Positions 7,774 to 63,127 are shown, counted from the first letter of the stretch. The stretch: 64,000 bases of DNA from Rikenellaceae bacterium (GCA_044433365.1 JAWXTR010000001.1:44860-108859); one strand, 5' to 3'. The notes: generated by a model not told the origin, from the letters alone. Numbers and translations: made by a program.

Positions 7774-7836
7774 TATAATTCATAATGCATAATTCATAAT
7801 GCATAATTCATAATTTATAATTTATAATTTATAATT
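7774..7836 (-). repeat. heptanucleotide satellite array (reads CATAATK/TATAATT on plus)
   Basis: About 9 tandem 7-nt units filling the response-regulator/kinase spacer. Confidence 0.95.
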
Positions 7837-7838
7837 AA

Positions 7839-9185
7839 CTAAAGCTTATACTTCTTAATCTTATTATAAAGCGTCTGACGAGTAATAGCAAGCTCACTAG
7901 CCACAGCCGACATATTCCCCTCATTGCGAATTATTGCTGCTTCGATGGTTTGTCGCTCTATATTTTCTAGGGTGTCGATAGGTGTGCTGTTTTTTGAGGT
8001 TGCAGTTGCTAAATTTGTACTTTTTAGCAGTAAATCGCCCTGTTTTATAGTGTCGCTATCGCAAAGTATTACAGCTTTTTCAATAGTATGTTGCAATTCA
8101 CGTATATTTCCAGCCCAACTATGAGATATTAGAGCCTCAGTAGCATTTGGAGTAAATCCCTCAATCTGTTTCTGATATTTTGTCTTGTACATATCTAAAA
8201 AACGTTCGGCAAGAGGTAAAATATCCTCTTTTCGCTCTCTAAGAGCAGCTATTTTTGTCTGTATAGTGTTAATTCTATAGAATAAATCCTCACGAAACTT
8301 TCCATCTGCTACCATCTCTTCCAAATCTCTGTTTGTGGCGCAAATTAATCTTACATCTATATCTGTCGGGCTATTGCTACCCACTTTTACCACCTTTTTA
8401 CTCTGTAAAACAGTCAGTAATTTGGCTTGTAGATGGTATGGAAGATTGGCTATTTCATCTAAAAATATGGTGCCACCATTTGCAGCTTCAAACTTGCCAG
8501 CTCTATCGCATGTAGCCCCTGTAAACGACCCTTTTGTGTGTCCAAATAGTTCGCTTTCAAACAGAGTCTCGGCTATTGCTCCCATATCTACCGTAATAAG
8601 CGGCATTTTCGCTCTATTTGAATTTGAGTGTATCTCTTTTGCTAATACCTCCTTGCCTGTGCCATTTTCACCTGTTATAAGTATGTTTACATCGGTTACA
8701 GCCACTTTTTCGATGGTCTCTTTTAGTTGGCGCATTGCTTGGGAGTTACCCCAATACATTGGGCTTTTAGATTGCGACGACGTTGCCTTTTTCTCCCCTT
8801 TTTTAGATATTGCAGCCTTTGTAAGGGTGTCGATTAGTTTCGCATTATCCCAAGGTTTAACCACAAAATCGGCTGCACCACGTTTAATAGCCTCTACTGC
8901 CAATTCTATATCGGCATAGGCGGTAAAAACCACTACTGGCAGCGATTTGTCGATTTTTTTTATCTCCTCCAACCAATACAAGCCCTCATTGCCGCTATTT
9001 ATCGAGGCGGTGAAGTTCATATCCAAAAGTACCAAACTTACCTCCTCTTTGCGAAGCGTTGTGGCTATACTATTTGGTGTAGCAGTAACGATAATCTTCT
9101 CAAAGTGTGGCGACATCAAAAGTTTTACAGCCGAGAGTATCGACTTATTATCGTCTACAATTAAAAGTGTGCCTTTTGGTTTCAT
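7839..9185 (-). CDS. sigma-54-dependent response regulator (NtrC family)
   Basis: REC domain, AAA+ Walker A GENGTGKE, GSFTGA (GAFTGA-type sigma-54 contact loop), C-terminal HTH (ITRQTLYNKIKKY). Confidence 0.9.
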   Translation of the reverse strand: MKPKGTLLIVDDNKSILSAVKLLMSPHFEKIIVTATPNSIATTLRKEEVSLVLLDMNFTASINSGNEGLYWLEEIKKIDKSLPVVVFTAYADIELAVEAIKRGAADFVVKPWDNAKLIDTLTKAAISKKGEKKATSSQSKSPMYWGNSQAMRQLKETIEKVAVTDVNILITGENGTGKEVLAKEIHSNSNRAKMPLITVDMGAIAETLFESELFGHTKGSFTGATCDRAGKFEAANGGTIFLDEIANLPYHLQAKLLTVLQSKKVVKVGSNSPTDIDVRLICATNRDLEEMVADGKFREDLFYRINTIQTKIAALRERKEDILPLAERFLDMYKTKYQKQIEGFTPNATEALISHSWAGNIRELQHTIEKAVILCDSDTIKQGDLLLKSTNLATATSKNSTPIDTLENIERQTIEAAIIRNEGNMSAVASELAITRQTLYNKIKKYKL

Positions 9186-9214
9186 CTCTCTATTTTAGTT
9201 TTTTTGCATTAAAT

Positions 9215-9553
9215 TTAGCTTGCTACGCTTGCCATCCATAACTTAAATGGCTCTGCTTTGGGCGACGGTACTGATTGAATTAATCGAAAAAGTTGCTCTG
9301 TGTCAGCTACATCGGTTAAATATTTTTTACCATCACTAGAACGCATTTTGAGTTGTCCTATATTTTCGGACAACTCACTACCTTCAGTTTGTAACTTCTT
9401 TTTTAAATCGCTCCAATACTTACGTGGACGTGGACTATCAGTTAAAATCTCAATTACATCAATAATAGAAAAAAACCACTTCTCCTGCTCATCATCCCAA
9501 AGAGTACGCACTTTACGCTCCTCAAATATTTGAATTTTATTTTGTGTTGTCAT
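9215..9553 (-). CDS. Bro-N/DinD-like domain protein, apparently C-terminally truncated
   Basis: 112 aa. WFFSIIDVIEILTDS..PRKYW..LFRLIQSVPSPKAEPFKLWMA matches my memory of Bro-N domain proteins, which normally continue well past this point. Confidence 0.55.
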   Translation of the reverse strand: MTTQNKIQIFEERKVRTLWDDEQEKWFFSIIDVIEILTDSPRPRKYWSDLKKKLQTEGSELSENIGQLKMRSSDGKKYLTDVADTEQLFRLIQSVPSPKAEPFKLWMASVAS

Positions 9554-9601: not shown

Positions 9602-9634
9602 AAATTATGAATTATACATTATAAATTATGAATT
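9602..9634 (+). repeat. heptanucleotide satellite array (AATTATG orientation)
   Basis: AAATTATGAATTATACATTATAAATTATGAATT. Confidence 0.9.
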
Positions 9635-9637
9635 AAT

Positions 9638-9687
9638 AAAAAGTGTCTAATTTCTTTACACTACTGTCAAAAAATTAGACACTTTTA
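9638..9687. promoter_or_regulatory. perfect 15-bp inverted repeat, candidate enhancer (UAS) for the NtrC-type regulator
   Basis: AAAAAGTGTCTAATT ..19 nt.. AATTAGACACTTTTT, centred about 75 bp upstream of the -24/-12 element. No gene ends here, so a terminator role is unlikely. Confidence 0.35.
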
Positions 9688-9750: not shown

Positions 9751-9777
9751 AAAGCTACTACAAAATAGGAATAAATT

Positions 9778-11109
9778 ATGAAAAACTTATTATTTTCAGC
9801 TATACTATTAGCAATTACTGCAAATGGAGTCAAGGCACAAACACCCATTACATTGCAGCAGTGTATGGAGTATACTCTGGAGCGAAATAATGCTATAAAA
9901 ATTCAAGAAATAGTGAATAATAGCACAAAACAGGATAAAACAGAGTCGATAGCATCGCTTTTCCCCTCACTAAGCGCATCATCGAGTGTTACAAACTCTT
10001 ATGGTCGTTCGATTGACCCAGAGACCAACACCTACACCACTAGCGGCAACCTTTCCAACTCTTACGGTTTGTATGCTTCTGTAACCGTATTTAGTGGACT
10101 AACAAACATTAATGCAGTGCGTGCTGCAAGAATGCGTGTAGAACAGGGAGGACTTCAATTACAGCAAAAAAAGGATGAAATGGCTATTTCGGCTATGAAG
10201 CTATTTTATGATGCGCTATACTACGAGGAGTCGGTAAAAATAGTTGTAGAGCAGAAAGAGGCATCTGAAAAGGTGTTGAAATTGACAAAAAAACAGTTAG
10301 AATTGGGTGTAAAAAGCGAAGCAGATGTAGCAGTAGCAGCAGCAGAGGTGGCAAACTACGACCTACTTCTTACAGAGCAAGAGAGTAGCTACAGGTTGGC
10401 TATATTAGATGTAAAAGAGGCGATGAACTTTCCATTAGATAGCCAAATAGAGCTTGTCGGTAGTGATACAAAGCTGCTAGAGACTCTAAAAACATTTAAA
10501 CCTTTCGACAGCAGCGAAACTCTGGAATATAACAGCGAAGTTCAATCGGCAAAAAGCTCATTAAAAGAGAGTCAGATAAATTTAAAAATAGCAAAAGGTG
10601 GTTATCTTCCCACTATCTCTTTTGGTGCTGGTTACAACACAAACTACTTTAAAATGTTTGATAGCGATGTAGCACAACGAATATTTTCTGACCAAATAAG
10701 GGATAACAACGGTTACTATTTTGGGGCATCTATCTCAATACCAATTTTTAAGGGGTTAAACAGTAGAATTAACGTTATAAAGAGTCGCAATAATGTAAAA
10801 ATAGCAGAGTTGCAGCTTTCGCAAACCGAGTTAAAGGTAGAAAAGGCGATAAAAAATGCACTGCTACAGAAAACAAGTTCCCTAAAAGAGCAGATAGGAG
10901 CAGAAAAGAAGATAGAAGCAAATAAATTAGCTACAAGAGCGATGACAAAAAAATATGAACAGGGAATAGCTAGCATAATCGACCTACAAAAAAGCAGCAA
11001 CGACCTACTACTAGCAAAAGCCGCCTATGCAAGAGCAAAGTATAACTACCAAATTCAATCAATAATGGTAGAGTATTATCGCAGTGGCGTTTTAGAGGTT
11101 AGAGGTTAG
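9778..11109 (+). CDS. TolC-family outer membrane efflux protein
   Basis: 443 aa. Signal peptide, two-repeat coiled/alpha-rich OEP architecture. First gene of the efflux operon. Confidence 0.8.
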   Translation: MKNLLFSAILLAITANGVKAQTPITLQQCMEYTLERNNAIKIQEIVNNSTKQDKTESIASLFPSLSASSSVTNSYGRSIDPETNTYTTSGNLSNSYGLYASVTVFSGLTNINAVRAARMRVEQGGLQLQQKKDEMAISAMKLFYDALYYEESVKIVVEQKEASEKVLKLTKKQLELGVKSEADVAVAAAEVANYDLLLTEQESSYRLAILDVKEAMNFPLDSQIELVGSDTKLLETLKTFKPFDSSETLEYNSEVQSAKSSLKESQINLKIAKGGYLPTISFGAGYNTNYFKMFDSDVAQRIFSDQIRDNNGYYFGASISIPIFKGLNSRINVIKSRNNVKIAELQLSQTELKVEKAIKNALLQKTSSLKEQIGAEKKIEANKLATRAMTKKYEQGIASIIDLQKSSNDLLLAKAAYARAKYNYQIQSIMVEYYRSGVLEVRG

Positions 11110-11134
11110 AGGGAAAAGAGGAGAGAGATTAGAG

Positions 11135-11172
11135 CATTACAATTATGCATTATGAATTATGCATTATGAATT
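11135..11172 (+). repeat. heptanucleotide satellite array (AATTATG orientation)
   Basis: CATTACAATTATGCATTATGAATTATGCATTATGAATT in the TolC/MacA spacer. Confidence 0.95.
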
Positions 11173-11179: not shown

Positions 11180-12439
11180 ATGGATATAAAATTAGAACAA
11201 CCAAAAGGCATAAAAGCCATATTCAGAGCCAAAAATCTACCATATTTTTTAGGTGGAGCACTACTAATATTCGTAGCATGGCTACTACTACGTGATAATT
11301 CGGCTACGCTACGCATTAATGCCAAAACTATAGCAGTCGAAACAGTTGAAAATGGCGAATTTAACGACTATGTACGCATTACAGGGCAGGTTCAACCAAT
11401 AATGGCAGTGCAGCTTAGCCCATTAGAGAGCGGTATTGTAGAAGAAATTATGGTAGAGGAGGGTGCAAAGGTGAAAAAAGGTCAAATTTTAGCCATTTTA
11501 AGCAACAATAACCTAAACCTTTCAATCCTAGATAGCGAAGCGCAACTAGCAGAGAAACAGAACTTTCTACGCAACACCCAAATCACTATGGAGCAGGAGC
11601 GTTTAAGCCTAAATCAAGAGCGATTGCAGCTAGAATTAGATGTAAAACGCAAATATAGAGCCTATAAGCAGCAAGAGGAGTTATATAACGATAAACTCGT
11701 TGCAAAAGAGGATTGGCTGATAGCAAAAGAGGATTATGAGCTTGCAGTAAACCGTAGAGAGTTGATTTTAGAGCGACAAAAGCAAGATAGCCTTTACCGT
11801 ACAGTGCAGGTAGACCAAATGGAAGAGAGCCTTAATAATATGCGCCGAAATATGGAGCTTGTGCGCCAAAGAGTTGAAAATCTACATATTAAATCGCCTA
11901 TTGATGGTGAACTAGGTTTGTTAGATTTAGTATTAGGACAGTCGGTATCGTCGGGACAGAAAATAGGGCAAGTAAACGACCTTTCAAACTTTAAAATCGA
12001 AGCTCAAATTAATGAACACTACATAGATAGAGTAAATTCGGGTCTTACAGCAGCATTTGAACGCAGTGGTGAAACATTCGAGACGACTCTACGCAAAGTC
12101 TACCCAGAGGTGAGAGAGGGTCAGTTTCGTGCAGATTTTAAATTTACGGGTAATCGCCCTGAGAATATTCGTTCAGGTCAAACTTATTACTTAAATTTGC
12201 AACTTGGAGCACCAGCCCAGGCGGTTATCATTCCACGAGGTTCATTCTACCAAAGTACAGGTGGAAATTGGATTTTTGTTGTAAATGAAGCTGAGGGCAA
12301 AGCCTATAAACGCCATATTAAAATCGGTCGTCAAAATCCTCAATATTATGAGGTTATCGAGGGTCTTTCAGCTGGCGAAAAGGTGATTGTCTCTAGTTAT
12401 GAGCAGTATGGGGATAATGAGGTGCTGCTTTTTGATTAA
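11180..12439 (+). CDS. HlyD/MacA-family periplasmic adaptor
   Basis: N-terminal TM anchor, lipoyl-like and long coiled-coil segments, beta-barrel C-terminus. Start taken at MDIKLEQ, downstream of the array-encoded MHYELNI. Confidence 0.8.
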   Translation: MDIKLEQPKGIKAIFRAKNLPYFLGGALLIFVAWLLLRDNSATLRINAKTIAVETVENGEFNDYVRITGQVQPIMAVQLSPLESGIVEEIMVEEGAKVKKGQILAILSNNNLNLSILDSEAQLAEKQNFLRNTQITMEQERLSLNQERLQLELDVKRKYRAYKQQEELYNDKLVAKEDWLIAKEDYELAVNRRELILERQKQDSLYRTVQVDQMEESLNNMRRNMELVRQRVENLHIKSPIDGELGLLDLVLGQSVSSGQKIGQVNDLSNFKIEAQINEHYIDRVNSGLTAAFERSGETFETTLRKVYPEVREGQFRADFKFTGNRPENIRSGQTYYLNLQLGAPAQAVIIPRGSFYQSTGGNWIFVVNEAEGKAYKRHIKIGRQNPQYYEVIEGLSAGEKVIVSSYEQYGDNEVLLFD

Positions 12440-12469
12440 TGCGTAATTCGTAATTCGTAATGCGTAATT
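12438..12469 (-). repeat. heptanucleotide satellite array (CGTAATT variant, reverse orientation)
   Basis: AATGCGTAATTCGTAATTCGTAATGCGTAATT overlapping the MacA-like stop codon. 5' arm of a potential stem with 12530-12561. Confidence 0.95.
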
Positions 12470-12529
12470 GTGCAACGACAAAAAAACAAAGGGAACTTTT
12501 AAAATAAAATATAATATTATAAATCAATC

Positions 12530-12561
12530 AATTATGCATTATGAATTATGCATTATGAATT
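12530..12561 (+). repeat. heptanucleotide satellite array (AATTATG orientation)
   Basis: AATTATGCATTATGAATTATGCATTATGAATT. 3' arm of the stem with 12438-12469. Confidence 0.95.
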
Positions 12562-12574
12562 AAAATTTATTGCT

Positions 12575-13255: not shown

Positions 13256-13328
13256 TTACGGAAGCCGTATAGCGCAGCCATTTTTGGCACATCCCTCCGC
13301 TTTTTAATCCTCACGCACCCCAAAAATC

Positions 13329-13360
13329 AATGCATAATTCATAATGCATAATTCATAATT
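13329..13360 (-). repeat. heptanucleotide satellite array, left arm bracketing the four-helix-bundle gene
   Basis: AATGCATAATTCATAATGCATAATTCATAATT. Its reverse complement matches 13732-13763 at 31 of 32 positions. Confidence 0.95.
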
Positions 13361-13373: not shown

Positions 13374-13733
13374 ATGGGAAAAAGAGAAAATGTGATTGTT
13401 GACAAGAGTAAATTGTTTGCTATTCGGATAATTAGATTATATCAATATTTAAATAATGAAAAACAAGAGTATGTTTTATCAAAACAGTTATTGAGGTCGG
13501 GAACAAGTATTGGAGCTAATGTAAAAGAGGCTATACGTGGGCAATCTAAGGCTGATTTTGTGGCAAAAATGAATATTTCATTAAAAGAGGCAAGTGAAAC
13601 AGAATATTGGTTAGAATTACTACTTGAAACTGATTATATTAATAATCAGCAGTTTGATAGTATCTATTTAGATAATCAAGAGTTAATAAAACTCCTAATT
13701 TCAATAATCAAATCGAGTAAAAATAATTCCTAA
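13374..13733 (+). CDS. four-helix-bundle protein (23S rRNA intervening-sequence protein / Avd-fold family)
   Basis: 119 aa. ..LSKQLLRSGTSIGANVKEA....F..K..I.LKEASETEYWLELL.. is the family signature as I recall it (TIGR02436/PF05635 type). Confidence 0.8.
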   Translation: MGKRENVIVDKSKLFAIRIIRLYQYLNNEKQEYVLSKQLLRSGTSIGANVKEAIRGQSKADFVAKMNISLKEASETEYWLELLLETDYINNQQFDSIYLDNQELIKLLISIIKSSKNNS

Positions 13734-13763
13734 TTATGAATTATGCATTATGAATTATGAATT
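13732..13763 (+). repeat. heptanucleotide satellite array, right arm bracketing the four-helix-bundle gene
   Basis: AATTATGAATTATGCATTATGAATTATGAATT, starting inside the TAA stop of the 4HB gene. Confidence 0.95.
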
Positions 13764-13781
13764 AATTTAAAATGAATTAAA

Positions 13782-16196
13782 ATGAAAAATATATTACGAA
13801 ATAGAGATGGTGAGTTGCTAAAGGTGATACTACTAGGTGTTGCACTAGCAATGTCGCTTGTGATGTTTTCAAAGGTCTATTTTGAGAATAGCTATGAGGA
13901 TTTTGTGCCCAAGGCTGAGCGAATATATCGGGTGCATCCTCGATTTACTAGAGCAGGGCTTAGGATGATTCCCCAGTGGGCAACAACACCCGGTGGAATT
14001 GCACCAACAATAATAAAATTCTCTCCCCTTTTTGAGAGTGCTACACGATATAAGGTATATCGCAACGATGCAGCCTTTTATAAGGTGAGTGATAGTGATA
14101 GCGATGATGCACGTTCGGTAGTTTGTAGTGAGATGATACTTGCTGATAGCAATTTCCTTAGTTTTTTTCCACGTAATGTTATTGGTGCTACTATGGAAGA
14201 TATTGCCTCTACTTCACACGATGTGCTTTTATCTCGCTCTTTGGCTGAGAGTTTAAGCCATGACGGTGATGCAGAGTCGATTATTGGTAGTATGATACGA
14301 AGTAATGCTATCGTAATAGACGAAGATTTTACGGTAAAAGGAATTTTTGACGATTTTCCAAAAAATTCCTCACTTTGTGATATTGAGGTAATAGGTTCGG
14401 TGGAGCTTAACAATCTCTTTTATGATGAAGAGGATCATAACCGATTAATGGGTAACGAAGTATACCACAGTTATGTAAGATTGCAACCAAATGTAGAGGT
14501 TGCAGAGCTAGACAAGGCAATAGAGAATGCAATAGAGACAGATATTGTCAAAACATATAAAGATTTTATACCTGATGATATGTCGATTGGTTACTATTTA
14601 GAGGGTATTAAAACTATACATACCTCTGAGCAGTCGGTACGCTCAACGATTACACTACTGCTGATTTTAGGAATTTCAGTACTTGCAATTGCAATGTTAA
14701 ACTACGTTCTTTTTGCAGTAACTGCACTTGTTAAGAGGGCTAAAAATATTGCGACTCGCCGCTGTTATGGTGCGCCTACATGGGTGATATACAAAATGCT
14801 TATCAGTGATGCACTCTCTACGCTTTTGCTCTCACTAGCGTTGGCTGTATTTCTATTATTTGCATTAAAACCAAATATAGAAGCTATTACGGGTGTGCGT
14901 TATGTCGATTTATTTACTTTTGATATAGTTTGGATTGTGGTTGTGGTGTCGCTAATGGTGGTTATGGTGTGTGGTGTCGTTCCTGCTGCTATCTACTCAA
15001 AAATTCCTCTTTCGGCAGCGTTCCAACGCTTTAAAGAGCGAAATACAAAGTGGAAATATGCGCTTTTGGCTGTTCAATTCTCGGGTGCAATGTTGTTTAT
15101 CGCTCTACTTTCGATTATGACGCTACAATATCGCTATCTGTTATCCGTAGATATTGGCTATAAATATGATAATCTGCTATACGTGCAGTTTGAACGCTTT
15201 AATAGCGATGGTTACAAGGAGGTAAAAGATAATGTAATAAAAGTTGCAGGAGTTGAAAAAGTGGCACGTTGTTCGGATTTACCCTACACATTTCTTAGTT
15301 CTAATAGCACTTACGATAGTCAGGATGGTTTTTTATTCTCTTCTAACGAGATGAGTGCAGCCGATGAAGATTTACCATCAATCTTTGGACTCGAAATTGT
15401 TGAGGGGCGTGATTTTGATGCAGAGCATCCTACGGGGCAAGAGGCTTTGGTTAGTAAATCGTTTGTAGAGCAGATGTCTAAATATAAAGATTGGAGCGAT
15501 GGAGCAGTGGGTAAGTCGTTTCAAATGTCGTCACATAATCATAATGATGAGTATTCAACGGTTTGCGGAGTGTACGAAGATTTTTTAGTTGGAAATGCTG
15601 TTACTTTAGATGATATGCCATCTGTTATTTTCTATAGTGAGACTCAAAGCCATAACTATAATGTTAAGATGAAATATCTTGTCATAAAAGTTCGAGAAGA
15701 TACTCAAGAGATTAGAACAGCTATTCAAAATGCTATTAAAGAGATTGTGCCATCGCAAAATACTGAGATTCGTAACTACTCAGCAGAGTTTGAGCAGTCG
15801 TATTCTGATAGTAAAAACTTTAGAAACATGGTGCTTTACGCAGGTTTGATAGTGTTGATAATCACTTTAATCGGTTTGGTAGGCTATACACGTGATGAAA
15901 TATCACGTCGCAGGTCGGAAATTGCTATTCGTAAGATTCATGGAGCTACAACTTCCGAAATTATTCAGATTTTTATGCGTGATGTGGTTTGGCTTTTGCT
16001 TTTTGGACTTTTAGCAGGTGGTGCAGCTTCGCTATATGCTGCTAACTCTCTACTTGAGATGTTCGCCTATAAAATTACGCTTAGCCCATGGATATTCCTA
16101 TTGAGTGCAGTAGTAGTAACAGCAGTAATAGCCGCAGTGGTAATATCTACAACTCATAGAGCTGCTGATGCTAACCCTGTGGATAACCTTAATTAA
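13782..16196 (+). CDS. ABC transporter permease, duplicated FtsX/MacB-type
   Basis: 804 aa. Two modules, each a large extracytoplasmic domain plus a 4-TM FtsX-like bundle. Follows the ATPase in the same operon. Confidence 0.8.
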   Translation: MKNILRNRDGELLKVILLGVALAMSLVMFSKVYFENSYEDFVPKAERIYRVHPRFTRAGLRMIPQWATTPGGIAPTIIKFSPLFESATRYKVYRNDAAFYKVSDSDSDDARSVVCSEMILADSNFLSFFPRNVIGATMEDIASTSHDVLLSRSLAESLSHDGDAESIIGSMIRSNAIVIDEDFTVKGIFDDFPKNSSLCDIEVIGSVELNNLFYDEEDHNRLMGNEVYHSYVRLQPNVEVAELDKAIENAIETDIVKTYKDFIPDDMSIGYYLEGIKTIHTSEQSVRSTITLLLILGISVLAIAMLNYVLFAVTALVKRAKNIATRRCYGAPTWVIYKMLISDALSTLLLSLALAVFLLFALKPNIEAITGVRYVDLFTFDIVWIVVVVSLMVVMVCGVVPAAIYSKIPLSAAFQRFKERNTKWKYALLAVQFSGAMLFIALLSIMTLQYRYLLSVDIGYKYDNLLYVQFERFNSDGYKEVKDNVIKVAGVEKVARCSDLPYTFLSSNSTYDSQDGFLFSSNEMSAADEDLPSIFGLEIVEGRDFDAEHPTGQEALVSKSFVEQMSKYKDWSDGAVGKSFQMSSHNHNDEYSTVCGVYEDFLVGNAVTLDDMPSVIFYSETQSHNYNVKMKYLVIKVREDTQEIRTAIQNAIKEIVPSQNTEIRNYSAEFEQSYSDSKNFRNMVLYAGLIVLIITLIGLVGYTRDEISRRRSEIAIRKIHGATTSEIIQIFMRDVVWLLLFGLLAGGAASLYAANSLLEMFAYKITLSPWIFLLSAVVVTAVIAAVVISTTHRAADANPVDNLN

Positions 16197-16255
16197 TTCA
16201 TAATTTGTAATGCATAATTCATAATTGAAAATTCTTAAATTATGAATTATAAATT
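16195..16255. repeat. opposed heptamer arrays forming a hairpin just after the permease stop
   Basis: AATTCATAATTTGTAATGCATAATTCATAATT, 10-nt loop, AAATTATGAATTATAAATT. Confidence 0.9.
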
Positions 16256-16317
16256 AATTTACATGAGAACAATAGCAAACTTTTTTGTTTGATAGTAGTT
16301 TTGAGAATGACTCTAAG

Positions 16318-16464: not shown

Positions 16465-16628
16465 AAGTAGTGTAAAACAATTATTGCCATATTCTTAATA
16501 GCACTCTTGGAGCGATATTTTTCACTATTAAATCTCAATATAGAACCACTATATTGAGATTCAATAGCAAAAAATCTCATCTCCAATAGCACTATTAAAA
16601 ATACACCAATAATTATTTTACCCTACTT
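16465..16628 (-). mobile_element. TA-MITE165, full copy abutting the frdB stop codon
   Basis: TA on both flanks. The right TA plus the terminal element base form the frdB TAA stop on the minus strand. Confidence 0.85.
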
Positions 16629-21635: not shown

Positions 21636-21644
21636 GGGTTTATT

Positions 21645-21690
21645 AATTTATAATTCATAATTCATAATTCATAATGCATAATTCATAATT
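21645..21690 (-). repeat. heptanucleotide satellite array directly upstream of aroA
   Basis: AATTTATAATTCATAATTCATAATTCATAATGCATAATTCATAATT. Confidence 0.95.
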
Positions 21691-22113: not shown

Positions 22114-22761
22114 ATGATAGATTTTCTTTTTACTCCTGAGTCGATAGCTCGCAATGGCTTTCAGAAAAATATTGAAGTGGTTTTGGCAGCAGTTAAAAGT
22201 GATTGTTTCTACACTATTTCACTTCCTCCTCGTTATTTAGAAGAGGGTGCAATTGCTATTGGTGACACCCCTCTAGTTAATATATGTTCTATGTCTCAAT
22301 ACGCTTCGCTTACATATCCAGAAGTGGCGATATTAGAGGTTGCAATGGCTATAGAAAATGGTGCCGACGAGATTGAAATCCCTATCGATATGATTGCCAT
22401 CAAAAATGGCGATATAGATTTGGCTCTAGGCGAGATAGATGTGCTTGTCAAAGAGATTGACGGTGCAGCTCAACCTACAGTTTTTATGGAAAGTGGTGAG
22501 TTTAATAGCTTCGAGCAATTTATTTCTATGGTAAAAAGGTTAGAACTACTTGGTGTATACCAAATTACAATGAATAGCGACCCAAAAGATTTCTATAACA
22601 TTAAATATCTGGATGAAACAATAGCATTTATTGAAGAGAATGAAATGGAGATAACTTTAAAGATTAATGCCAATATAAATATTAATAATCTCGAGAGTGA
22701 GGTCGACAAATTATTCGAAAGATATGGCGACTCTTCGCTCACTGTTCGAATGACTCTTTAA
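22114..22761 (+). CDS. DeoC-like (class I aldolase fold) protein, probably non-catalytic
   Basis: 215 aa. AIENGADEIEIPIDMIAIKNGD and VFMESGEF align by eye to DeoC AIAYGADEVDVV.. and VIIETGEL, but the Schiff-base Lys position (FIKTSTG) reads QITMNSD. Confidence 0.5.
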   Translation: MIDFLFTPESIARNGFQKNIEVVLAAVKSDCFYTISLPPRYLEEGAIAIGDTPLVNICSMSQYASLTYPEVAILEVAMAIENGADEIEIPIDMIAIKNGDIDLALGEIDVLVKEIDGAAQPTVFMESGEFNSFEQFISMVKRLELLGVYQITMNSDPKDFYNIKYLDETIAFIEENEMEITLKINANININNLESEVDKLFERYGDSSLTVRMTL

Positions 22762-22798
22762 TTCGTAATTCATAATTTATAATTTATAATTCATAATT
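22760..22798 (-). repeat. heptanucleotide satellite array
   Basis: AATTCGTAATTCATAATTTATAATTTATAATTCATAATT overlapping the stop codon of 22114..22761. Confidence 0.95.
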
Positions 22799-28096: not shown

Positions 28097-29734
28097 ATGA
28101 ACAAAACAATAAAAGGATTTCTTTGGGGTGTATCCTCTGCCCTAGCTACTACAGCACTGGTTGCAGCTACAAATGATGATTTTGCGAGAGGAAAAAATTT
28201 AGAAATATTTTTTAATGTTTTTCGTGAAGTAAATCTATCGTATGTAGATAAACCCGATTCTGAGAAGATGGTGCGTAATGCACTTGATGGAATGTTGGAG
28301 CAAATTGACCCCTACACAACCTATATGTCGGAGGAGGATTATGCTCAATTCGAAGAGCTTACAACGGGCGAATATGCAGGTATTGGAGCTGTAATTTTTA
28401 AACATGTAGATAGTCTTTATACCGAAATTTCGGAGGTAATCCAAAATTCACCTGCCGACAAGGCTGGTTTGGTAATGGGTGATAGGCTGCTTATGGTTGA
28501 TACAACAAACCTTAAAGGGCTTGAATCTAGCGATATTAGCAGTTTGCTTCGTGGTAATGCAGGTTCGCAATTTACACTAAAATATAGGTCACTTCTTACA
28601 AATGAGGAGAAAGAGACAATCATAAAACGTGAGATTATCCACTCAAATGCTGTTAACTATGCAGGCTATATAAATGGTACAGATGGAGTTGGCTATATCA
28701 ATCTATCTACCTTTTCTGACGACTGCTCGTCGGAGGTGAGAGCAGCTATCGAAAAATTAAAGAGCGAGGGGGAGCTAAAATCGCTAATTTTAGACCTTCG
28801 TGATAATGGCGGTGGAGTGCTTCAAGAAGCGGTAAATATTGTTTCGCTTTTTGTCGATAAAGGTACTGAGGTTGTGAGCATTAATGGACGTTCGTTTAAG
28901 GAGCCAAAGGTTTACAAAACTTTATCTGAACCTATCGCTAAAGATATTCCACTTGCAGTTGTTGTTAATGGTTCGTCGGCTTCGGCTAGTGAGGTTGTAG
29001 CAGGTGCACTTCAAGATTTGGATAGAGCACTTATCGTGGGAAGTCAAAGCTATGGTAAAGGTTTGGTTCAAACACCTAAAGAGGTGGGTTATGGCTCAGT
29101 TCTAAAGGTTACAACTGCAAAATATTACACTCCAAGTGGTAGATGTATCCAAGCTGTCGATTTTAGTAACCGTAATGAGGATGGAAGTGTTGGGTCAATC
29201 CCCGACTCTCTACGCAAAGAGTTTAAAACAGTCGGAGGACGCACTGTTTTAGATGGTGGTGGTATCACTCCCGATTCACTTATTAAGACGAAAGGTTATA
29301 ACCGCTTTGTACAGAATGTAGCAGTTACTGGCACTTACCTAGAGGAGTATGTTAAGGAGTATTACAAAAATAATCAATCGAAAACTGATTTCGAAAATTT
29401 CTCACTGACAGATAGCGACTTATCTGATTTTGCTACCCTTTTAGAGGAGCGTAATTTTAAGGTTATTTCGCTTACAAACTACCATATCGACAAGCTAAAA
29501 GAGGCGGCTAAGAGCGAATACTATAGCTCTAAAATAGAGAAAGAGCTTGAAGCGTTGGAGAAAAAGATGGAGCTAAATATTCGTGAAGATGTAGAGCTAA
29601 ATAAACAAGATTTAAAGCTACTTATCGAAATGGATATCCTTACTGCATTTAAATATAAAGAGGGAAGAGTTAAACATTTTGCTCAAAGCGATAGTTTAGT
29701 AAAGAAAACAGCTATGTTTCTTGAGCAAAGATAA
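28097..29734 (+). CDS. S41 family C-terminal processing peptidase
   Basis: 545 aa. Signal peptide, PDZ segment (SPADKAGLVMGDRLL), catalytic region LILDLRDNGGG and GSSASASE. Confidence 0.88.
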   Translation: MNKTIKGFLWGVSSALATTALVAATNDDFARGKNLEIFFNVFREVNLSYVDKPDSEKMVRNALDGMLEQIDPYTTYMSEEDYAQFEELTTGEYAGIGAVIFKHVDSLYTEISEVIQNSPADKAGLVMGDRLLMVDTTNLKGLESSDISSLLRGNAGSQFTLKYRSLLTNEEKETIIKREIIHSNAVNYAGYINGTDGVGYINLSTFSDDCSSEVRAAIEKLKSEGELKSLILDLRDNGGGVLQEAVNIVSLFVDKGTEVVSINGRSFKEPKVYKTLSEPIAKDIPLAVVVNGSSASASEVVAGALQDLDRALIVGSQSYGKGLVQTPKEVGYGSVLKVTTAKYYTPSGRCIQAVDFSNRNEDGSVGSIPDSLRKEFKTVGGRTVLDGGGITPDSLIKTKGYNRFVQNVAVTGTYLEEYVKEYYKNNQSKTDFENFSLTDSDLSDFATLLEERNFKVISLTNYHIDKLKEAAKSEYYSSKIEKELEALEKKMELNIREDVELNKQDLKLLIEMDILTAFKYKEGRVKHFAQSDSLVKKTAMFLEQR

Positions 29735-29792
29735 TTCATAATTCGTAATTCGTAATGCATAATTCATAATTCGTAATGCATAATTCATAATT
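29731..29792 (-). repeat. heptanucleotide satellite array filling the S41/PBP1A spacer
   Basis: About 9 units (CATAATT/CGTAATT/CGTAATG), containing the TAA stop of the S41 gene. Confidence 0.95.
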
Positions 29793-40386: not shown

Positions 40387-40454
40387 AATTTTTCTATTTT
40401 TAGTTGTTAACAACTGTTAATAACTGTTGATAACTTTGTTGATAACTATTGTTT

Positions 40455-40486
40455 AATTCATAATTTATAATTCATAATTTATAATT
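40455..40486 (-). repeat. heptanucleotide satellite array
   Basis: AATTCATAATTTATAATTCATAATTTATAATT. Confidence 0.95.
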
Positions 40487-40760: not shown

Positions 40761-40821
40761 ACAATTCATAATTTATAATTTATAATTTATAATTCATAAT
40801 TTATAATTCATAATTTATAAT
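40761..40821 (-). repeat. heptanucleotide satellite array overlapping the 3' end of the GSCFA gene
   Basis: About 9 units. Encodes the terminal ..NYKL* of 40808..41758. Confidence 0.95.
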
Positions 40822-41758
40822 TAAGAACTATCCCTATCTCTTTTTCCAATTGCTGAGCTTTTTGGAAGGTTGTAGACAGAAACTTCTGATGTGCAGCACT
40901 TTGGGGGTTTTGAGGGCGGTGAGCTAAAGCCTTTACTACCGACTCCACCTCTTTCATATATCGCTGACTATCAACATCTATAACTTCAGTTGAAAATCTC
41001 TCCCAAACATAATCTACCCCTATTTTTGATGGGTGTACCATATCGCTATCATAAAATCTATAATCACGAAGTTCGTCGTTAAAAATCTCATAAGAGGGAT
41101 AGTAATCAACATTTTCAAACTTTTTACATAAGTTATCAACAGCCACTAAAAGATGAGCCTTACTAACACTGTTTACCGCAAAACCATCCTTTATATATCT
41201 AACGGGGCTAACTGTAAAAATTATATGCTTATCTTTAAAATATTCCTGCTTAAAAAGTGAAGCAAATAGCTCGTAAGTCTCATCGCTATCAATCAATTTT
41301 CTCTCAAAATCGGCTGCTGGAAATTTATGACAATTTGCCACTGCCTTTCCGCTCTCTTTTTGGTAGTAGCAGAGCGACGTGCCAAGTGTAATTATTATAA
41401 AATCCGACTCTCTAAGCTGTTTTTCACCTCTAATTATTGCACTATTTATCATCTCGACTGCCTCCGCTGCTCTGGAAGATGTAAGTAGTGTGTTGGCTAT
41501 AAACGAACCGTATAGTTCACGGTGAAAAAATAGGTCGTCGGTGGTAATTAATCTTTTCTCTTTTAAAATCGTTAGCGTATCTACCACCGACTGAGGATTG
41601 TAGAGCGTGCCAAGTGGATTGTAAAGGGTGTTAAACCTCCGAACAATAAGTTTTTCGCCAATATTTGCCGAAAAACATGAACCAATCATAAAAATAGTGC
41701 TTTTATAGTCTATTTTATTTTTAAAATCTACCTTTTCAACTTTTGTTTGTAGCTGCAT
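40808..41758 (-). CDS. GSCFA domain protein
   Basis: 316 aa. MIGSCFSANIGEKL (GSCFA motif) near the N-terminus. Confidence 0.75.
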   Translation of the reverse strand: MQLQTKVEKVDFKNKIDYKSTIFMIGSCFSANIGEKLIVRRFNTLYNPLGTLYNPQSVVDTLTILKEKRLITTDDLFFHRELYGSFIANTLLTSSRAAEAVEMINSAIIRGEKQLRESDFIIITLGTSLCYYQKESGKAVANCHKFPAADFERKLIDSDETYELFASLFKQEYFKDKHIIFTVSPVRYIKDGFAVNSVSKAHLLVAVDNLCKKFENVDYYPSYEIFNDELRDYRFYDSDMVHPSKIGVDYVWERFSTEVIDVDSQRYMKEVESVVKALAHRPQNPQSAAHQKFLSTTFQKAQQLEKEIGIVLNYKL

Positions 41759-41875: not shown

Positions 41876-43111
41876 ATGGAACCTGTAGAGCAGAGATTTA
41901 TAAGATATGCTAGAATTGATACGCAAAGTTGTGACAGTTCTACTACCACACCTTCAACCTCAAAGCAGTTTGACCTGCTAAATTTACTAAAAAATGAGCT
42001 TGATGCTATGGGGTTGACAGATGTAATTTTGACAGAAAAGGGCTATTTATACGCCACTTTAGAGGCAAATTGCGACAAGATTTTACCTGTAATAGGTCTG
42101 ATTGCTCATGTTGATACATCGCCTGATATGAGTGGTGAAAATGTAAATCCTAAAGTTGTAAAATATAATGGAGGTGATATAGTTTTAAATAAAGAGCTTG
42201 ATATTATCACTCGTCTAAACGATTTTCCAGAGTTAGAAAAATATAAAGGTCATGAGCTTATAGTCACCGATGGCACAACTCTGCTTGGTGCTGATGACAA
42301 AGCAGGAGTAGCCGAGATTATGGCTGCAATGGAGTATTTTATCGAAAATCCTGAGGTTAAACATGGTACTATCAAGGTGGGTTTCACCCCTGATGAGGAG
42401 ATTGGACGAGGTGCCGACCACTTTGATGTTAAGCTTTTTGGTGCCGACTACGCCTACACCTTTGATGGCTCATCGCTGGGAGAGTTGGAGTATGAAAATT
42501 TTAATGCAGCCACTGTAAAAATCAATATTCAAGGACGAAATGTTCACCCGGGTTATGCAAAAAACAAGATGCTCAACGCCTTTACCATTGCAATGGAGTT
42601 CGACTCACTAGTTCCAAAATTTGAACGCCCTGAATACACCTCTGGATATGAGGGGTTTTATCATCTTGTATCACTAGGAGGTAGTGTAGATGCTACATCT
42701 ATGAGCTATATAATTAGAGACCACAGCGATGAGATTTACTCTAATCGTATCGACACTATAAAACTAGTTGCAAAGCGAATAAACGAAAAATATGGCAATT
42801 CTACAGTTGCACTAACAGTAAAAGAGCAATACCGCAATATGCGCTCCGTTATCGAAAATGGCAATATGGCTATAGTCGAACGAGCAATAGCAGCAATGAA
42901 ACGGATAGATATAAAACCTGACGTAAAGCCAATTAGAGGAGGAACCGATGGTAGCAGATTATCATTTATGGGACTTCCAACTCCAAATATCTTTGCTGGA
43001 GGCGAAAACTTCCACGGTCGCCACGAATTTATCTCTATCAGCGTAATGAACAAGGCTTTTGAACTTGCTGTTGAGCTTTGTAGGGAGGGGGAGACGAATT
43101 ATAAATTGTAA
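41876..43111 (+). CDS. pepT: peptidase T (tripeptide aminopeptidase, M20B)
   Basis: 411 aa. RFIRYARIDTQS, AHVDTSPD, LGADDKAG, PDEEIGRGA. Full-length PepT pattern. Confidence 0.9.
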   Translation: MEPVEQRFIRYARIDTQSCDSSTTTPSTSKQFDLLNLLKNELDAMGLTDVILTEKGYLYATLEANCDKILPVIGLIAHVDTSPDMSGENVNPKVVKYNGGDIVLNKELDIITRLNDFPELEKYKGHELIVTDGTTLLGADDKAGVAEIMAAMEYFIENPEVKHGTIKVGFTPDEEIGRGADHFDVKLFGADYAYTFDGSSLGELEYENFNAATVKINIQGRNVHPGYAKNKMLNAFTIAMEFDSLVPKFERPEYTSGYEGFYHLVSLGGSVDATSMSYIIRDHSDEIYSNRIDTIKLVAKRINEKYGNSTVALTVKEQYRNMRSVIENGNMAIVERAIAAMKRIDIKPDVKPIRGGTDGSRLSFMGLPTPNIFAGGENFHGRHEFISISVMNKAFELAVELCREGETNYKL

Positions 43112-43139
43112 ATTGTGAATTGTGAATTATAAATGAATT
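43097..43139 (+). repeat. heptanucleotide satellite array (AATTGTG/AATTATA variants) overlapping the pepT stop
   Basis: AATTATAAATTGTAAATTGTGAATTGTGAATTATAAATGAATT. Confidence 0.9.
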
Positions 43140-45598: not shown

Positions 45599-45615
45599 AA
45601 TTAAAAGTTTATTTA

Positions 45616-47894: not shown

Positions 47895-47921
47895 AGTCGC
47901 CGAGCCACAAATTTAAATTAA

Positions 47922-47956: not shown

Positions 47957-48037
47957 ACAACAAATGAGAGCACTACGAAGTAATGCTCTCATTTGTTTCA
48001 ACTCCCTTAAAGTAGTCTTAAAAATTAGATATTTTCG

Positions 48038-50719: not shown

Positions 50720-50751
50720 AATTATGAATTATGAATTACGAATTATGAATT
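50720..50751 (+). repeat. heptanucleotide satellite array spanning the mazG/LbH junction
   Basis: AATTATGAATTATGAATTACGAATTATGAATT. Encodes the last codons and stop of mazG. Confidence 0.95.
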
Positions 50752-51533: not shown

Positions 51534-51574
51534 AATAATTATGCATTATGAATTATGCATTATGAATTGTAATT
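51534..51574 (+). repeat. heptanucleotide satellite array in the rluA-like/mazG spacer
   Basis: AATAATTATGCATTATGAATTATGCATTATGAATTGTAATT. Confidence 0.95.
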
Positions 51575-55043: not shown

Positions 55044-55101
55044 ATATGAATTATAAATTATAAATTATGAATTACGCATTATGAATTACGCATTATGAAT
55101 T
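55044..55101 (+). repeat. heptanucleotide satellite array filling the aminotransferase/MFS spacer
   Basis: About 8 units (AATTATA, AATTATG, AATTACG, CATTATG). Confidence 0.95.
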
Positions 55102-56275
55102 AAATCTCGCACGCTTTAAGTAAAATAGAGCAACAGCTACGAATCTCATCCTCACTAATAATCAGCGGAGGAGCCACACGCAAAGCATCAGTGCAAAACA
55201 AAAACCCCTCGGTTACAACCCCCATATCTACAGCACGAGCCACAATCTTATCACGAACCTCTTCCGAGCCAAAATCCATCGCTATCATCAATCCACATCG
55301 ACGAATCTCTTTAAGATTTTTAGCATTTTTCAGTAAGTCGTAAAAAAGCTGAGATTTACTTTCAATCGCATCAAGCAGTTTCTCATCCTCAATATATTCA
55401 ATCGCTGCCAAACCTGCTGCTGCCGACACTGGATGACCTCCAAAAGTGGTGATATGCCCCAAAACAGGGTTAAAAGTCAAGGTATCCATCATCTCTTTAG
55501 TTGCAGCAAACCCCCCAAGTGGCATTCCGCCGCCCATAGCCTTTGCCATACATATAATATCGGGTTTCACCCCGATTTTCTCCCAAGCAAACATCTTTCC
55601 AGTACGTCCAAAACCTGTTTGAATCTCATCAAAGATAAGAAGAGTGCCAGTTTCATCGCATTTTTGGCGCAATGCAGCGATAAATTCAGCGGTAGGAATA
55701 CGAAAACCGCCCTCACCCTGAATAGGCTCAATAATCACAGCAGCAGTGCGCTCTGAAATAGCCGAAAGTGAGTCGATATCGTTAAAAACAATCTGACCAA
55801 CATCGGGAAGCAGCGGACGGAAGCTATTTTTGAAAAATTCGCTCCCCATTATGCTTAACGCCCCTTGCGTAGAGCCGTGATAGCTATTTTTGCATGATAT
55901 TAACTCCGTGCGCCCTGTATATCGTTTAGCTAATTTCATTGCACCCTCAATAGCCTCACTACCAGAGTTTACAAGATATATATTGTCGATGCCATCGGGT
56001 AGATATTTCGAGATTTTTCGAGCAATTTCGATTTGAGGAGTCTGTATCATCTCACCATACACCATAAGGTGCATATATTTTTGAGCCTGCGCACACACCG
56101 CCTCTACAACTCTCTTGTTTGAGTGCCCAACATTACTAACCGACACCCCCGATATTAAATCTATGTAACGACGATTATCAGGCGAATATAGGTATATCCC
56201 CTCAGCTCTTTCAACCTCAATTCCCATCGGTTTTGGGGAGGTTTGCCCCACATATCGTAAAAAATATTTTATCAT
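55100..56275 (-). CDS. class III PLP aminotransferase (acetylornithine/GABA aminotransferase-like)
   Basis: 391 aa. SGSEA.EGA.KLA, DEIQTGFGRTGK, MAKAMGGG (PLP Lys). Confidence 0.85.
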   Translation of the reverse strand: MIKYFLRYVGQTSPKPMGIEVERAEGIYLYSPDNRRYIDLISGVSVSNVGHSNKRVVEAVCAQAQKYMHLMVYGEMIQTPQIEIARKISKYLPDGIDNIYLVNSGSEAIEGAMKLAKRYTGRTELISCKNSYHGSTQGALSIMGSEFFKNSFRPLLPDVGQIVFNDIDSLSAISERTAAVIIEPIQGEGGFRIPTAEFIAALRQKCDETGTLLIFDEIQTGFGRTGKMFAWEKIGVKPDIICMAKAMGGGMPLGGFAATKEMMDTLTFNPVLGHITTFGGHPVSAAAGLAAIEYIEDEKLLDAIESKSQLFYDLLKNAKNLKEIRRCGLMIAMDFGSEEVRDKIVARAVDMGVVTEGFLFCTDALRVAPPLIISEDEIRSCCSILLKACEI

Positions 56276-59683: not shown

Positions 59684-59779
59684 CAATTCATAATGCATAA
59701 TGCATAATTTATAATTTATAATTTATAATTCATAATTTATAATTGCCAATTACGCATTATGAATTACGAATTACGAATT
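59684..59779. repeat. opposed heptamer arrays (61 nt + 32 nt) separated by GCC, filling the recQ/rsmA spacer
   Basis: ..TATAATTCATAATTTATAATT GCC AATTACGCATTATGAATTACGAATTACGAATT. Confidence 0.95.
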
Positions 59780-59782
59780 AAA

Positions 59783-61975: not shown

Positions 61976-62104
61976 ACCTAAATGATTGAATTATAAGTAA
62001 TTTGCCTATTTGTTAGTAATATTCCAACGTTTGAAGTTAATATAAAATTAATAAAATTCAAAAAACTAAGCTATCTTTGTGAAAATAATTTTAATTTTTT
62101 CGTT

Positions 62105-63088
62105 ATGATTTCGACAAATGAGTCTAAAATTATAGAGTTTGCAAAGGAAGTTGTGACCGATGAAATCGACTCACTAAAGAGGCTTTTCGACTACATAAAT
62201 GGCGATTTTGCCACTGTAATCGAGCTAATATCTAATGGCAAAGGACGTGTTATCATTACAGGAATAGGAAAAAGTGCTATTATTGGTAGTAAGATAGTGG
62301 CAACACTAAATTCTACGGGTACTCCAGCAATTTTTATGCACGCTGCCGATGCTATTCATGGCGACTTAGGAATTGTGCAGAAAGATGATATAGTGATATG
62401 TATTTCAAAGAGTGGAAACACTCCCGAAATTAAGGTTCTGATTCCTCTAATTCGTAATCTTGGCTATGGTAATACTATTGTTGCAATGGTGGGAAATAGT
62501 GAGTCGTTTTTGGCAATGCAATCAGATTATATTTTAGATACTACAGTATCAAAAGAGGCGTGTCCTATGAATCTTGCGCCAACCTCTAGCACCACTATGC
62601 AGCTAGTTATGGGCGATGCTCTTTCGATGACCCTTCTGCATCTTCGTGGCTTCTCCAAAGATGATTTTGCAAAGGTACACCCTGGGGGAGCACTTGGAAA
62701 ACGTCTATATATAAAAGTTAGCGATATTCTTAGCGGCGATGCTGTACCAAAAGTTACAGAAAAGGCAACTATCGATGAGGTTATTGTCGAAATATCATCT
62801 AAACGACTTGGTGCAACTGCTGTAACCGATAGAAATGGTACACTTGTAGGAATTATCACCGATGGCGACCTTCGTCGTATGTTGCAGCGAAAAATTGATA
62901 TTGGAGTGGTTTGTGCCAAAGATATTATGAGCTGTAACCCGAAAACAATCTCTAAAGAGGAGTTGGCGGTTAAGGCGTTCTCTATAATGGAGGATAAAAA
63001 AATTACTCAACTACTAGTAACCGACTCAGACGGAAAATATTGTGGCATCGTTCATATCCATGATATTTTGCGTGAAGGAGTAGTTTGA
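62105..63088 (+). CDS. kdsD: KpsF/GutQ-family arabinose-5-phosphate isomerase (SIS + tandem CBS)
   Basis: 327 aa. SIS motif ITGIGKSAIIG and two CBS domains. Confidence 0.88.
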   Translation: MISTNESKIIEFAKEVVTDEIDSLKRLFDYINGDFATVIELISNGKGRVIITGIGKSAIIGSKIVATLNSTGTPAIFMHAADAIHGDLGIVQKDDIVICISKSGNTPEIKVLIPLIRNLGYGNTIVAMVGNSESFLAMQSDYILDTTVSKEACPMNLAPTSSTTMQLVMGDALSMTLLHLRGFSKDDFAKVHPGGALGKRLYIKVSDILSGDAVPKVTEKATIDEVIVEISSKRLGATAVTDRNGTLVGIITDGDLRRMLQRKIDIGVVCAKDIMSCNPKTISKEELAVKAFSIMEDKKITQLLVTDSDGKYCGIVHIHDILREGVV

Positions 63089-63090
63089 TG

Positions 63091-63127
63091 ATAATTATGA
63101 ATTATGAATTGTGAATTATGAATTATA
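63091..63127 (+). repeat. heptanucleotide satellite array filling the kdsD/lptB spacer
   Basis: ATAATTATGAATTATGAATTGTGAATTATGAATTATA. Confidence 0.95.

Follow-up and report, generated by a model that had tools for sequence, protein, structure and literature searches.

Intergenic AATTATG heptanucleotide arrays in a Rikenellaceae genome and their association with S23p four-helix-bundle genes

Tandem repeats of a seven-nucleotide unit, scattered through intergenic spacers, have been described in several bacteria. MacGregor 2015 counted 169 sets of TAACTGA repeats between the genes of a Beggiatoaceae genome and also reported this unit from Cyanobacteria and five Bacteroidetes (PMC4679880). Rehm 2015 found 186 GGGAATC arrays in Xanthomonas, most of them four units long and some in inverted pairs; the majority occupy equivalent intergenic positions in two species and vary there in length and sequence (PMC4692102). 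Abundant intergenic heptanucleotide tandem repeats are also described in PMC6344855, and cyanobacteria of the Calothrix/Nostoc kind are among the known hosts of such repeats. An excess of heptamers among long simple sequence repeats (LSSRs), together with the idea of polymerase slippage, goes back to Mrazek 2007 as cited by these three papers, and slippage is the only cause offered in the literature (PMC4692102). Here we analyze a 64,000-nucleotide stretch of a Rikenellaceae metagenome-assembled genome (MAG), referred to below as the window, in which 19 loci carry arrays of AATTATG and close variants. The original prediction made from this DNA held that no described element class combined such properties; the papers above, and Mrazek 2007 as cited in them, describe one. 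The AATTATG arrays are members of this known, unexplained class of bacterial intergenic heptanucleotide tandem repeats, to which the window adds a new unit, a new host range and an association with genes of the S23p family.

Two other systems bear on this locus. In Coxiella, the 23S rRNA intervening sequence (IVS) encodes S23p and has terminal inverted repeats whose 28-bp stem is cut by RNase III in vitro; two to three GACAGAT heptamers, strain-variable in number, stand between the 5′ cut and the open reading frame (ORF) (PMC4990558). In Haemophilus influenzae, an (ATCTTTC)n array is one arm of a hairpin in a 5′ untranslated region (UTR) that is processed by RNase III, which changes in repeat number also require (PMC12721329).

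To define the arrays, we used both Tandem Repeats Finder (TRF) and a separate unit-by-unit scan. Period-7 arrays were recovered at all 19 predicted loci, with the predicted variants (AATTATG, CATTATG, AATTATA, AATTACG and AATTGTG). They amount to ~23 arrays and 869 bp, each array having 3–9 units in either orientation, and the head-to-tail period is exactly 7 at every locus (Table 1). A two-unit probe with one mismatch permitted matched 56 times, compared with 0.18 expected from dinucleotide-preserving shuffles and with 0/100 shuffles reaching that number; the recurrence of AATTATG at many separate loci is thus far above chance. A period of 7 is found in 315 arrays across 947 kb of loci with arrays, and periods 5, 6 and 8–12 in 31 or fewer. 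As predicted, placement is non-random, with arrays filling short spacers between co-directional genes. They occupy 17 of the 49 intergenic spacers (35%) of a window that is 86% coding, and Pfam searches agree with the names the original prediction gave to the neighbouring genes. One unit family makes up nearly all period-7 arrays; the sole unrelated one, TTAGAGG x3 at 11092–11112, lies directly 5′ of the AATTATG array at 11141. Unrelated heptamer arrays also stand side by side elsewhere, for example CAGCATT, GTGGAAC and CTCAATT. A perfect hexamer array, (AATACA)6 at 47835–47870, in or beside a small ORF (47713–47973), is unrelated to the heptamers.

Table 1. Arrays and associated features of the window, with the array-core-array elements of the relative L208.
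Feature	Position	Strand	Units	Context
Array	7774..7836	-	9 (AATTATA/AATTATG/CATTATG)	Fills regulator/kinase spacer, sense to mRNA
Sigma54-type response regulator stop	7839			Beside array 7774..7836
Degenerate array	9602..9640	+	~5	Divergent regulator/TolC spacer
Array	11141..11172	+	4.6 (AATTATG/CATTATG alternating)	Just 5′ of true MacA start
Hairpin left arm	12437..12469	-	AATTACG/CATTACG	Begins at MacA TAA stop
Hairpin right arm	12530..12562	+		Partner of 12437..12469; just 5′ of true ATPase start
S23p/4HB cassette, upstream inverted arm	13329..13360	-		
Four-helix-bundle (4HB) gene (PF05635 23S_rRNA_IVP, TIGR02436)	13374..13733	+		Between macB ATPase and permease genes
S23p/4HB cassette, downstream inverted arm	13732..13764	+		Starts at 4HB TAA stop
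Adjacent opposed arrays	16194-16238, 16236-16256	minus, plus		From permease TAA stop, convergent gene junction
Array	21644..21690	-	6-7	Upstream of EPSP synthase gene, sense
Array	22759..22798	-	5-6	After stop of 22114-22761 gene, antisense
Array	29730..29792	-	9	Fills S41 protease/PBP1A spacer, antisense; S41 TAA in first unit
Array	40454..40486	-	4.7	Upstream of SIMPL-family gene, sense
Array	40763..40822	-	8.6	Covers last 15 nt of GSCFA gene (..NYKL*)
Array	43096..43134	+	~5 (AATTGTG/AATTATA)	Overlaps M20 peptidase gene end (..NYKL*)
Array	50720..50751	+	4.6	MazG/hexapeptide-repeat (LbH) spacer, antisense; MazG end ..HNS* inside
Array	51537..51568	+	4.6	rluA-like gene/MazG spacer, antisense
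Array	55045..55102	+	8	Fills aminotransferase/MFS spacer, antisense
Opposed arrays, 3-nt loop	59685-59744, 59748-59780	minus, plus		Fill recQ/rsmA spacer
Array	63093..63133	+	5	Fills kdsD/lptB spacer, sense
Array-core-array elements of L208	1821-1901, 4757-4872, 6146-6230, 8640-8750, 9438-9522, 9906-9990			

The window arrays share with the described class their period of 7, a single dominant unit, many intergenic loci, a length of about 4 units, positions beside start and stop codons, occasional inverted pairs, and a conserved position with variable length and sequence. They differ in the unit, AATTATG or more generally [A/C]ATTnnn, and in their Rikenellaceae/Bacteroidales hosts, neither of which was found in the literature searched; the repeat string AATTATGAATTATG had no match in a full-text search. 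They are also present at very high density, in over a third of the spacers. Whereas TAACTGA is mostly ‘forward’ with respect to the downstream start, AATTATG shows no orientation bias. An Rfam scan of the window matched no family and no rRNA. Additionally, no flank or loop sequence is common to the window arrays, unlike miniature inverted-repeat transposable elements (MITEs), which have a conserved internal sequence and a target-site duplication.

Related genomes carry arrays at orthologous spacers. In L122, a syntenic relative of 48% G+C whose permease is ~70% identical, arrays of the same family lie in the same spacers (kinase/regulator, regulator/TolC, TolC/MacA and MacA/permease), mostly as opposed pairs, and differ from the window in unit number and order. 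At the position of the 9602..9640 array, the same array family is present both in L122 and in L208, a 48%-identity relative. In the comparison of orthologous spacers called for by the original prediction, unit number and sequence vary between the related genomes (L122 and L208), as in the known class; the array shared by L123 and L124, the only independent contigs spanning one same array, is identical (n=2). In L206, also a relative at 48% identity, 22 kb of sequence contains no arrays.

The arrays are associated with one gene family. The window's one PF05635/TIGR02436 gene, which encodes a four-helix-bundle (4HB) protein, is also its only gene inside an opposed array pair; the original prediction listed it only as a neighbour and missed the link. 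The gene matches PF05635 at 5.7e-29, TIGR02436 at 6.6e-32 and, as the closest structure, PDB 2RLD at 1e-42. It is sense-oriented in an ABC efflux operon, where its neighbours are the macB ATPase and permease genes (Pfam assignments), and its two arms mirror each other down to the placement of the CATTATG variant. This arrangement resembles the S23p IVS of 23S rRNA (Coxiella, Leptospira; PMC4990558), in which a sense PF05635/TIGR02436 ORF inside the host transcript has terminal inverted repeats forming a stem of ~28 bp and the 5′ arm contains heptamer direct repeats of strain-variable copy number. In contrast to that IVS, the cassette lies between protein-coding genes and not in helix 45 or 25 of 23S rRNA, and both of its arms are wholly heptamer arrays; RNase III excision, known from Coxiella and others, would apply to it by analogy. 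The macB ATPase/permease spacer has neither 4HB gene nor arrays in L122, L125 and L206, and has both in L124. In L208, the 4HB gene is on the opposite strand, between two whole hairpin elements.

A non-coding stretch of ~100 nt after the macB ATPase gene (window 13269–13318, L122 9850–10000, L125 118–275, L206 9846–10000) contains a hairpin, ..TTTTTAATCCTCACGCAC-loop-GTGCGCTGCGGTTAAAAA.. The stretch is well conserved in relatives with proteins only 48–70% identical to those of the window. The window retains only the 5′ half, which ends where the 4HB cassette begins.

The association extends well beyond this operon. Among 120 loci chosen by DNA pattern alone there are five PF05635 ORFs; each adjoins an array, four being flanked by arrays on either side, and two more PF05635 genes on viral contigs are bracketed alike; 912 kb of control-heptamer loci contain none. 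We also fetched 80 metagenome loci by protein alignment only, blind to arrays. Of these protein-chosen loci, 44/77 have a period-7 array no more than 200 nt upstream of the gene and 41/75 have one as close downstream; in 30, arrays stand on both sides. Because shuffled controls also gave very low energies, RNAduplex on 150-nt flanks was uninformative, and ungapped complementarity scoring with a cut-off of 16 was used instead. Inverted complementarity between the flanks scored at least 16 in 46 of the 73 testable loci, compared with 0/365 shuffles and with 13/73 for direct complementarity. After de-duplication at 90% protein identity, 43 of 65 clusters have inverted arms, from loci of 30–59% G+C. 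Arrays are present in 62/126 spacers beside the 4HB gene and in 14/113 of the remaining spacers in these loci (Fisher p=5e-10). In 41/51 cases both neighbouring genes run in the same direction as the 4HB gene.

The units of these cassettes vary by locus (AATTGTC, AATTCCG, AATTACG, AATTATG, CATTAAG, AACTGTC and others), and their general form is [A/C]ATT plus three variable bases. Upstream and downstream units are reverse complements of each other in 32 of 45 loci, and the other arrays of a locus mostly consist of its ‘house’ unit or the reverse complement. A literature search turned up no paper with a general heptamer array-S23p link, and neither S23 nor IVS genes are mentioned in the MacGregor supplement. 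One Xanthomonas array, GGGAATC #15, extends over the start of XCC0516 (PMC4692102 supplement); XCC0516 is PDB 2GSC, an S23p pentamer, and was detected by the S23p profile used here. The association between S23p and heptamer arrays is strong and apparently unreported, and the cassettes resemble rRNA IVSs outside rRNA.

Opposed pairs able to form stems of 20–30 bp had been predicted, and folding agreed. The cassette arms (13329/13732) form a 28-bp duplex of −35.7 kcal/mol. As sense RNA, the pair at 12437–12562 folds at −30.5 kcal/mol (z −5.0), the hairpin at 59685–59780 at −27.3 kcal/mol (z −4.9) and the adjacent arrays at 16194–16256 at −11.3 kcal/mol (z −3.1). Solo arrays are different: for 10 of 12, z lies between −1.4 and +1.6, so that they are at most as stable as shuffles and frequently less so. 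Likeness to the H. influenzae hmw repeat (PMC12721329) lies in a heptamer array of variable copy number that serves as the arm of a long hairpin. That system is a single locus of 11 or more units at one adhesin promoter/5′-UTR with a G-rich, non-repeat partner arm, whereas here there are many loci of 3–9 units and the partner is an inverted array.

The explanation we favour, at about even chances and in part by analogy, takes the arrays as the Rikenellaceae lineage's own ‘house’ version of prokaryotic intergenic heptanucleotide repeats, with a unit of [A/C]ATT plus three variable bases. Units would probably be gained and lost by slipped-strand mispairing. The arrays persist only between genes, since three units close all six frames, and extend up to neighbouring coding sequences, sometimes donating a stop codon. 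Function would come in pairs: two opposed arrays of ~4 units could form an AU-rich stem of 20–30 bp, and paired arrays would be the arms of IVS- or REPIN-like hairpins (REPINs being hairpin pairs of repetitive extragenic palindromic, or REP, sequences). By analogy with the S23p-encoding rRNA IVS, such stems may be processed by RNase III or act as insulators, separating an inserted S23p cassette, or two cistrons, at the RNA level. Array-stem elements, with or without an ORF, may spread as small hairpins by copying from one spacer to another. Most likely, solo arrays would be half-elements or slippage-grown remnants, forming an unstructured AU-rich spacer beside start and stop codons.

Several observations weigh against this explanation. 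Two of the window hairpins fold much better as sense RNA, and L122 shows the opposite, with the antisense strand folding better. Across 57 cassettes, arm mismatches that would be G-U in the sense strand do not significantly exceed those that would be A-C (59 vs 44, p=0.17). With no G-U excess and with the antisense folding in L122, the stems look like DNA-level inverted repeats without a sign of RNA selection, and we rejected sense-strand selection at the RNA level on these two grounds. Additionally, only about a third of the window arrays are paired, so that under the model the majority have to be classed as ‘remnants’. Among neighbouring arrays, opposed orientations exceed same orientations only ~2:1 (23 vs roughly 12, interrupted arrays removed). 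Neither a mobility enzyme nor a target-site duplication was identified, and no sequence is common to the window's loops. RNase III cleavage of the window stems is itself proposed by analogy only. Finally, (AATTATG)3 occurs in 91 IMG/VR stretches and three composition-matched heptamers lacking AATT occur in 24, 39 and 42; with controls at one quarter to one half of its frequency, the cross-phylum matches are only moderately special. A fixed order within pairs, always (CATAATT)n...(AATTATG)n, was considered and dropped: it holds for 4/4 pairs in the window and 3/3 in L122, and across loci the count is 14 vs 9. Uniqueness of the exact unit was likewise rejected, the composition-matched controls also being common in IMG/VR.

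The same results bear on a simpler possibility, that the arrays are neutral, slippage-prone heptanucleotide simple sequence repeats (SSRs) of no function, building up wherever coding constraint permits, and that they lie near S23p genes only because the same short spacers tolerate both. Their random orientation relative to genes, the differences in unit number and order between orthologous spacers, the 10/12 solo arrays that fold no better than shuffles, the absence of a strand-specific G-U signal and the control-heptamer arrays of IMG/VR would all be expected, and slippage is the published cause (PMC4692102). Even so, we consider neutrality unlikely. One unit family makes up nearly all period-7 arrays of the window, TTAGAGG x3 excepted, and the [A/C]ATT core is conserved over loci of 30–59% G+C. 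Arrays are four times commoner beside 4HB genes than in other spacers, though the adjacent spacers are shorter. Furthermore, upstream and downstream arrays are mirror copies with the order of variant units included, and in L208 a conserved core lies between the arms.

In L208, every operon spacer consists of (GAATGGT/GAATTAT)n, a core and (AATTCAC)n. The 27-nt core GGCTGGCGCATTTAAAYCGCTTGTCGC is conserved, occurs in either orientation and has six copies in 22 kb. The units flanking it (AATGGTG/AATTGTG) are related to those of the window, and no other locus, the window included, contains the core itself. With heptamer arrays as its arms, the L208 element is a true dispersed hairpin element. The original prediction had compared the arrays with REP sequences and bacterial interspersed mosaic elements (BIMEs). 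As an analogy this is reasonable, since like the REP/BIME and REPIN elements of Proteobacteria the arrays are short, abundant and extragenic, lie within operons and form inverted hairpin pairs, and the L208 element is dispersed as REPINs are. It fails as a class assignment: a REP unit is itself an imperfect palindrome of 20–40 nt, whereas the arms here are tandems of a non-palindromic 7-mer, most solo arrays are unstructured, and the window loops are unconserved. No domain of a REP-associated tyrosine (Y1) transposase (RAYT) turned up among 30 window proteins scanned, in a search not aimed at RAYT.

The window also has a second dispersed repeat. The 21-nt motif AGTAGTGTAAAACAATTATTG has 17 copies, in inverted pairs ~140 nt apart and sometimes doubled, at 2367–2529, 4577–4904, 16466–16627, 21717–21955, 35388–35550, 46089–46251 and 24934. 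All copies are intergenic and two adjoin heptamer arrays. This repeat looks like a MITE-like element of ~165 bp.

What S23p might do with the arrays can be framed more boldly, as a proposal that we think improbable on present evidence. S23p pentamers, relatives of Avd, the accessory protein of diversity-generating retroelements (DGRs), could be the dedicated partner of heptanucleotide arrays and could bind, process or mobilise their lineage's [A/C]ATTnnn. An S23p gene with inverted arms would then be the autonomous form, and the hundreds of ORF-less pairs and solo arrays would be derived forms, all belonging to a single widespread element system. If true, this would explain the dominance of period 7 among intergenic repeats across prokaryotes. 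Apart from this proposal, the arrays are tied statistically to one small protein family whose role has stayed unexplained ever since the first descriptions of the 23S IVS in the 1990s, and to an architecture, a stem around a sense ORF, in which RNase III cleavage is already demonstrated for the 23S IVS. This joins two loose ends, heptamer arrays and S23p, in one testable hypothesis.

A related possibility is that the heptads are protein-binding iterons, sites in double-stranded DNA (or in RNA) for a lineage-specific factor, possibly an S23p pentamer that autoregulates its own cassette and also acts on solo arrays. Heptad operators are bound by the omega repressor of pSM19035. Orientation independence fits a duplex-DNA site. 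The unit has a constant core with three lineage-specific variable bases, and three units span two helical turns (21 bp). The arrays beside S23p genes are of their genome's house unit, and in some Prevotella/Bacteroidaceae loci arrays abut a TAnnTTTG −7 box. A Nostoc preprint has postulated an unidentified heptamer repeat-binding protein (10.1101/2022.06.06.494920). We nevertheless regard iterons as quite unlikely. Few window arrays are near a promoter-like box, and S23p proteins with a common unit are only slightly more alike (66% identity) than those with different units (57%), a weak difference confounded by phylogeny, which alone could explain it. For the same reason, covariation of S23p sequence with the unit was not retained. 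A role of the arrays as part of Bacteroidales promoters, with an adjacent TAnnTTTG, was also set aside: such a box is seen in some Prevotella/Bacteroidaceae loci and at a single window array, 22759..22798, after which a −7-like TAnnTTTG box stands at 22809.

The original prediction had taken the non-random placement of the arrays as a sign of function and had proposed that array ATG codons serve as upstream starts and that gain or loss of a unit shifts the reading frame. Reading frames account for the placement. Because 7 and 3 are coprime and the unit brings TGA in one strand and TAA in its complement, any array of at least three units has a stop in each of the six frames. Consequently, of 193 arrays in the window and related loci, 190 lie outside ORFs. 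Frame closure alone thus explains why the arrays survive only between genes, and placement by itself is no evidence of function. Since the arrays are outside coding sequence, a change in unit number shifts no reading frame, and they differ in this from phase-variable contingency SSRs, which stand in coding sequence or between promoter elements. Orientation between co-directional genes is unbiased (56 sense and 54 antisense), and the antisense half offers the mRNA no ATG or TGA, only TAA. This symmetry argues against both a role that depends on AUG or UGA in the mRNA and a frame-shifting contingency role.

At gene ends, the arrays do supply stop codons, as had been predicted for the S41, 4HB, GSCFA and MazG genes; to these we add MacA, permease and M20, for a total of seven genes. 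The S41, 4HB, MacA and permease genes end at the TAA of a TAAT[TG] motif, and the C-termini of GSCFA (..NYKL*), M20 (..NYKL*) and MazG (..HNS*) lie inside arrays. At gene starts, the array ATGs do not hold up. MacA and ATPase orthologues of two relatives start 7–9 codons downstream of the array ATG, at MDI..EQPKG and MLKIKNIKK, respectively. The kinase ORF starts at 7790 (MHYEL..) inside an array; kinases of relatives lack the MHYEL prefix, and the rest of their N-terminal sequence differs too much for the start to be located. Judging from orthologue starts, which give support for MacA and ATPase, the MHYEL N-termini are ORF-calling artefacts.

Taken together, translational punctuation or insulation by ATG and TGA in all frames, or frame-shifting contingency, has little to recommend it, and we think it very improbable. 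The seven genes that end in an array, the ~30% to a third of arrays (window and related loci) that lie within 10 nt of a gene end, and the unstructured start region that solo arrays leave would all fit. The array ATGs are not the real starts, half of the arrays are antisense with TAA alone to offer, there is no frame to shift outside coding sequence, and L123 and L124 are identical at the one array that both span (n=2).

Arrays of this unit are not confined to close relatives. A pattern scan for AATTATG-[A/C]ATTATG-[A/C]ATTATG, with one genome per species, matched at least 120 stretches. Among the matches listed are many Bacteroidales MAGs (Prevotella, Bacteroidaceae, Muribaculaceae and Rikenellaceae) and, further, Chitinophagales, Saprospiraceae, Ruminococcus, Treponema, Lentisphaeria, Microcystis, Stigonema and Scytonema. 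In Lentisphaeria MAGs (L037, L038, L095 and L113) and a Chitinispirillaceae (L109), AATTATG arrays have conserved flanks, ..CCCTAACG-array-AAATGCGCCTCAGCATTCAGCATTC and array-AATTGCAGAGCGGAAAT, recurring every 57–105 nt, which suggests lineage-specific composite repeats around AATTATG.

The arrays also have practical consequences. Public k-mer (Logan) contigs end inside arrays, as in L001 (1–32, in the array 63093..63133), L123 and L124, and the arrays therefore fragment short-read assemblies of this organism. In addition to breaking k-mer assemblies, they give false MHYEL... N-terminal extensions in gene calls of Bacteroidales MAGs.

Other features of the window include an 834-aa BspA-type leucine-rich-repeat protein (43286–45790) and, beside the regulator/TolC spacer, a protein with a BRO-N domain, which is phage-associated (9215–9553); neither has an apparent connection to the arrays. 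Lastly, the region separating the sigma54-type response regulator from the TolC/MacAB operon contains a palindrome, GTGTCTAATTT...AAATTAGACAC (window 9643–9682). It is conserved in L122 (3566–3791) and L208 (3234–3465), where a −24-like box, TTGGCACG, stands downstream, and the two are probably an enhancer-binding site and a sigma54 promoter predicted for the efflux operon.

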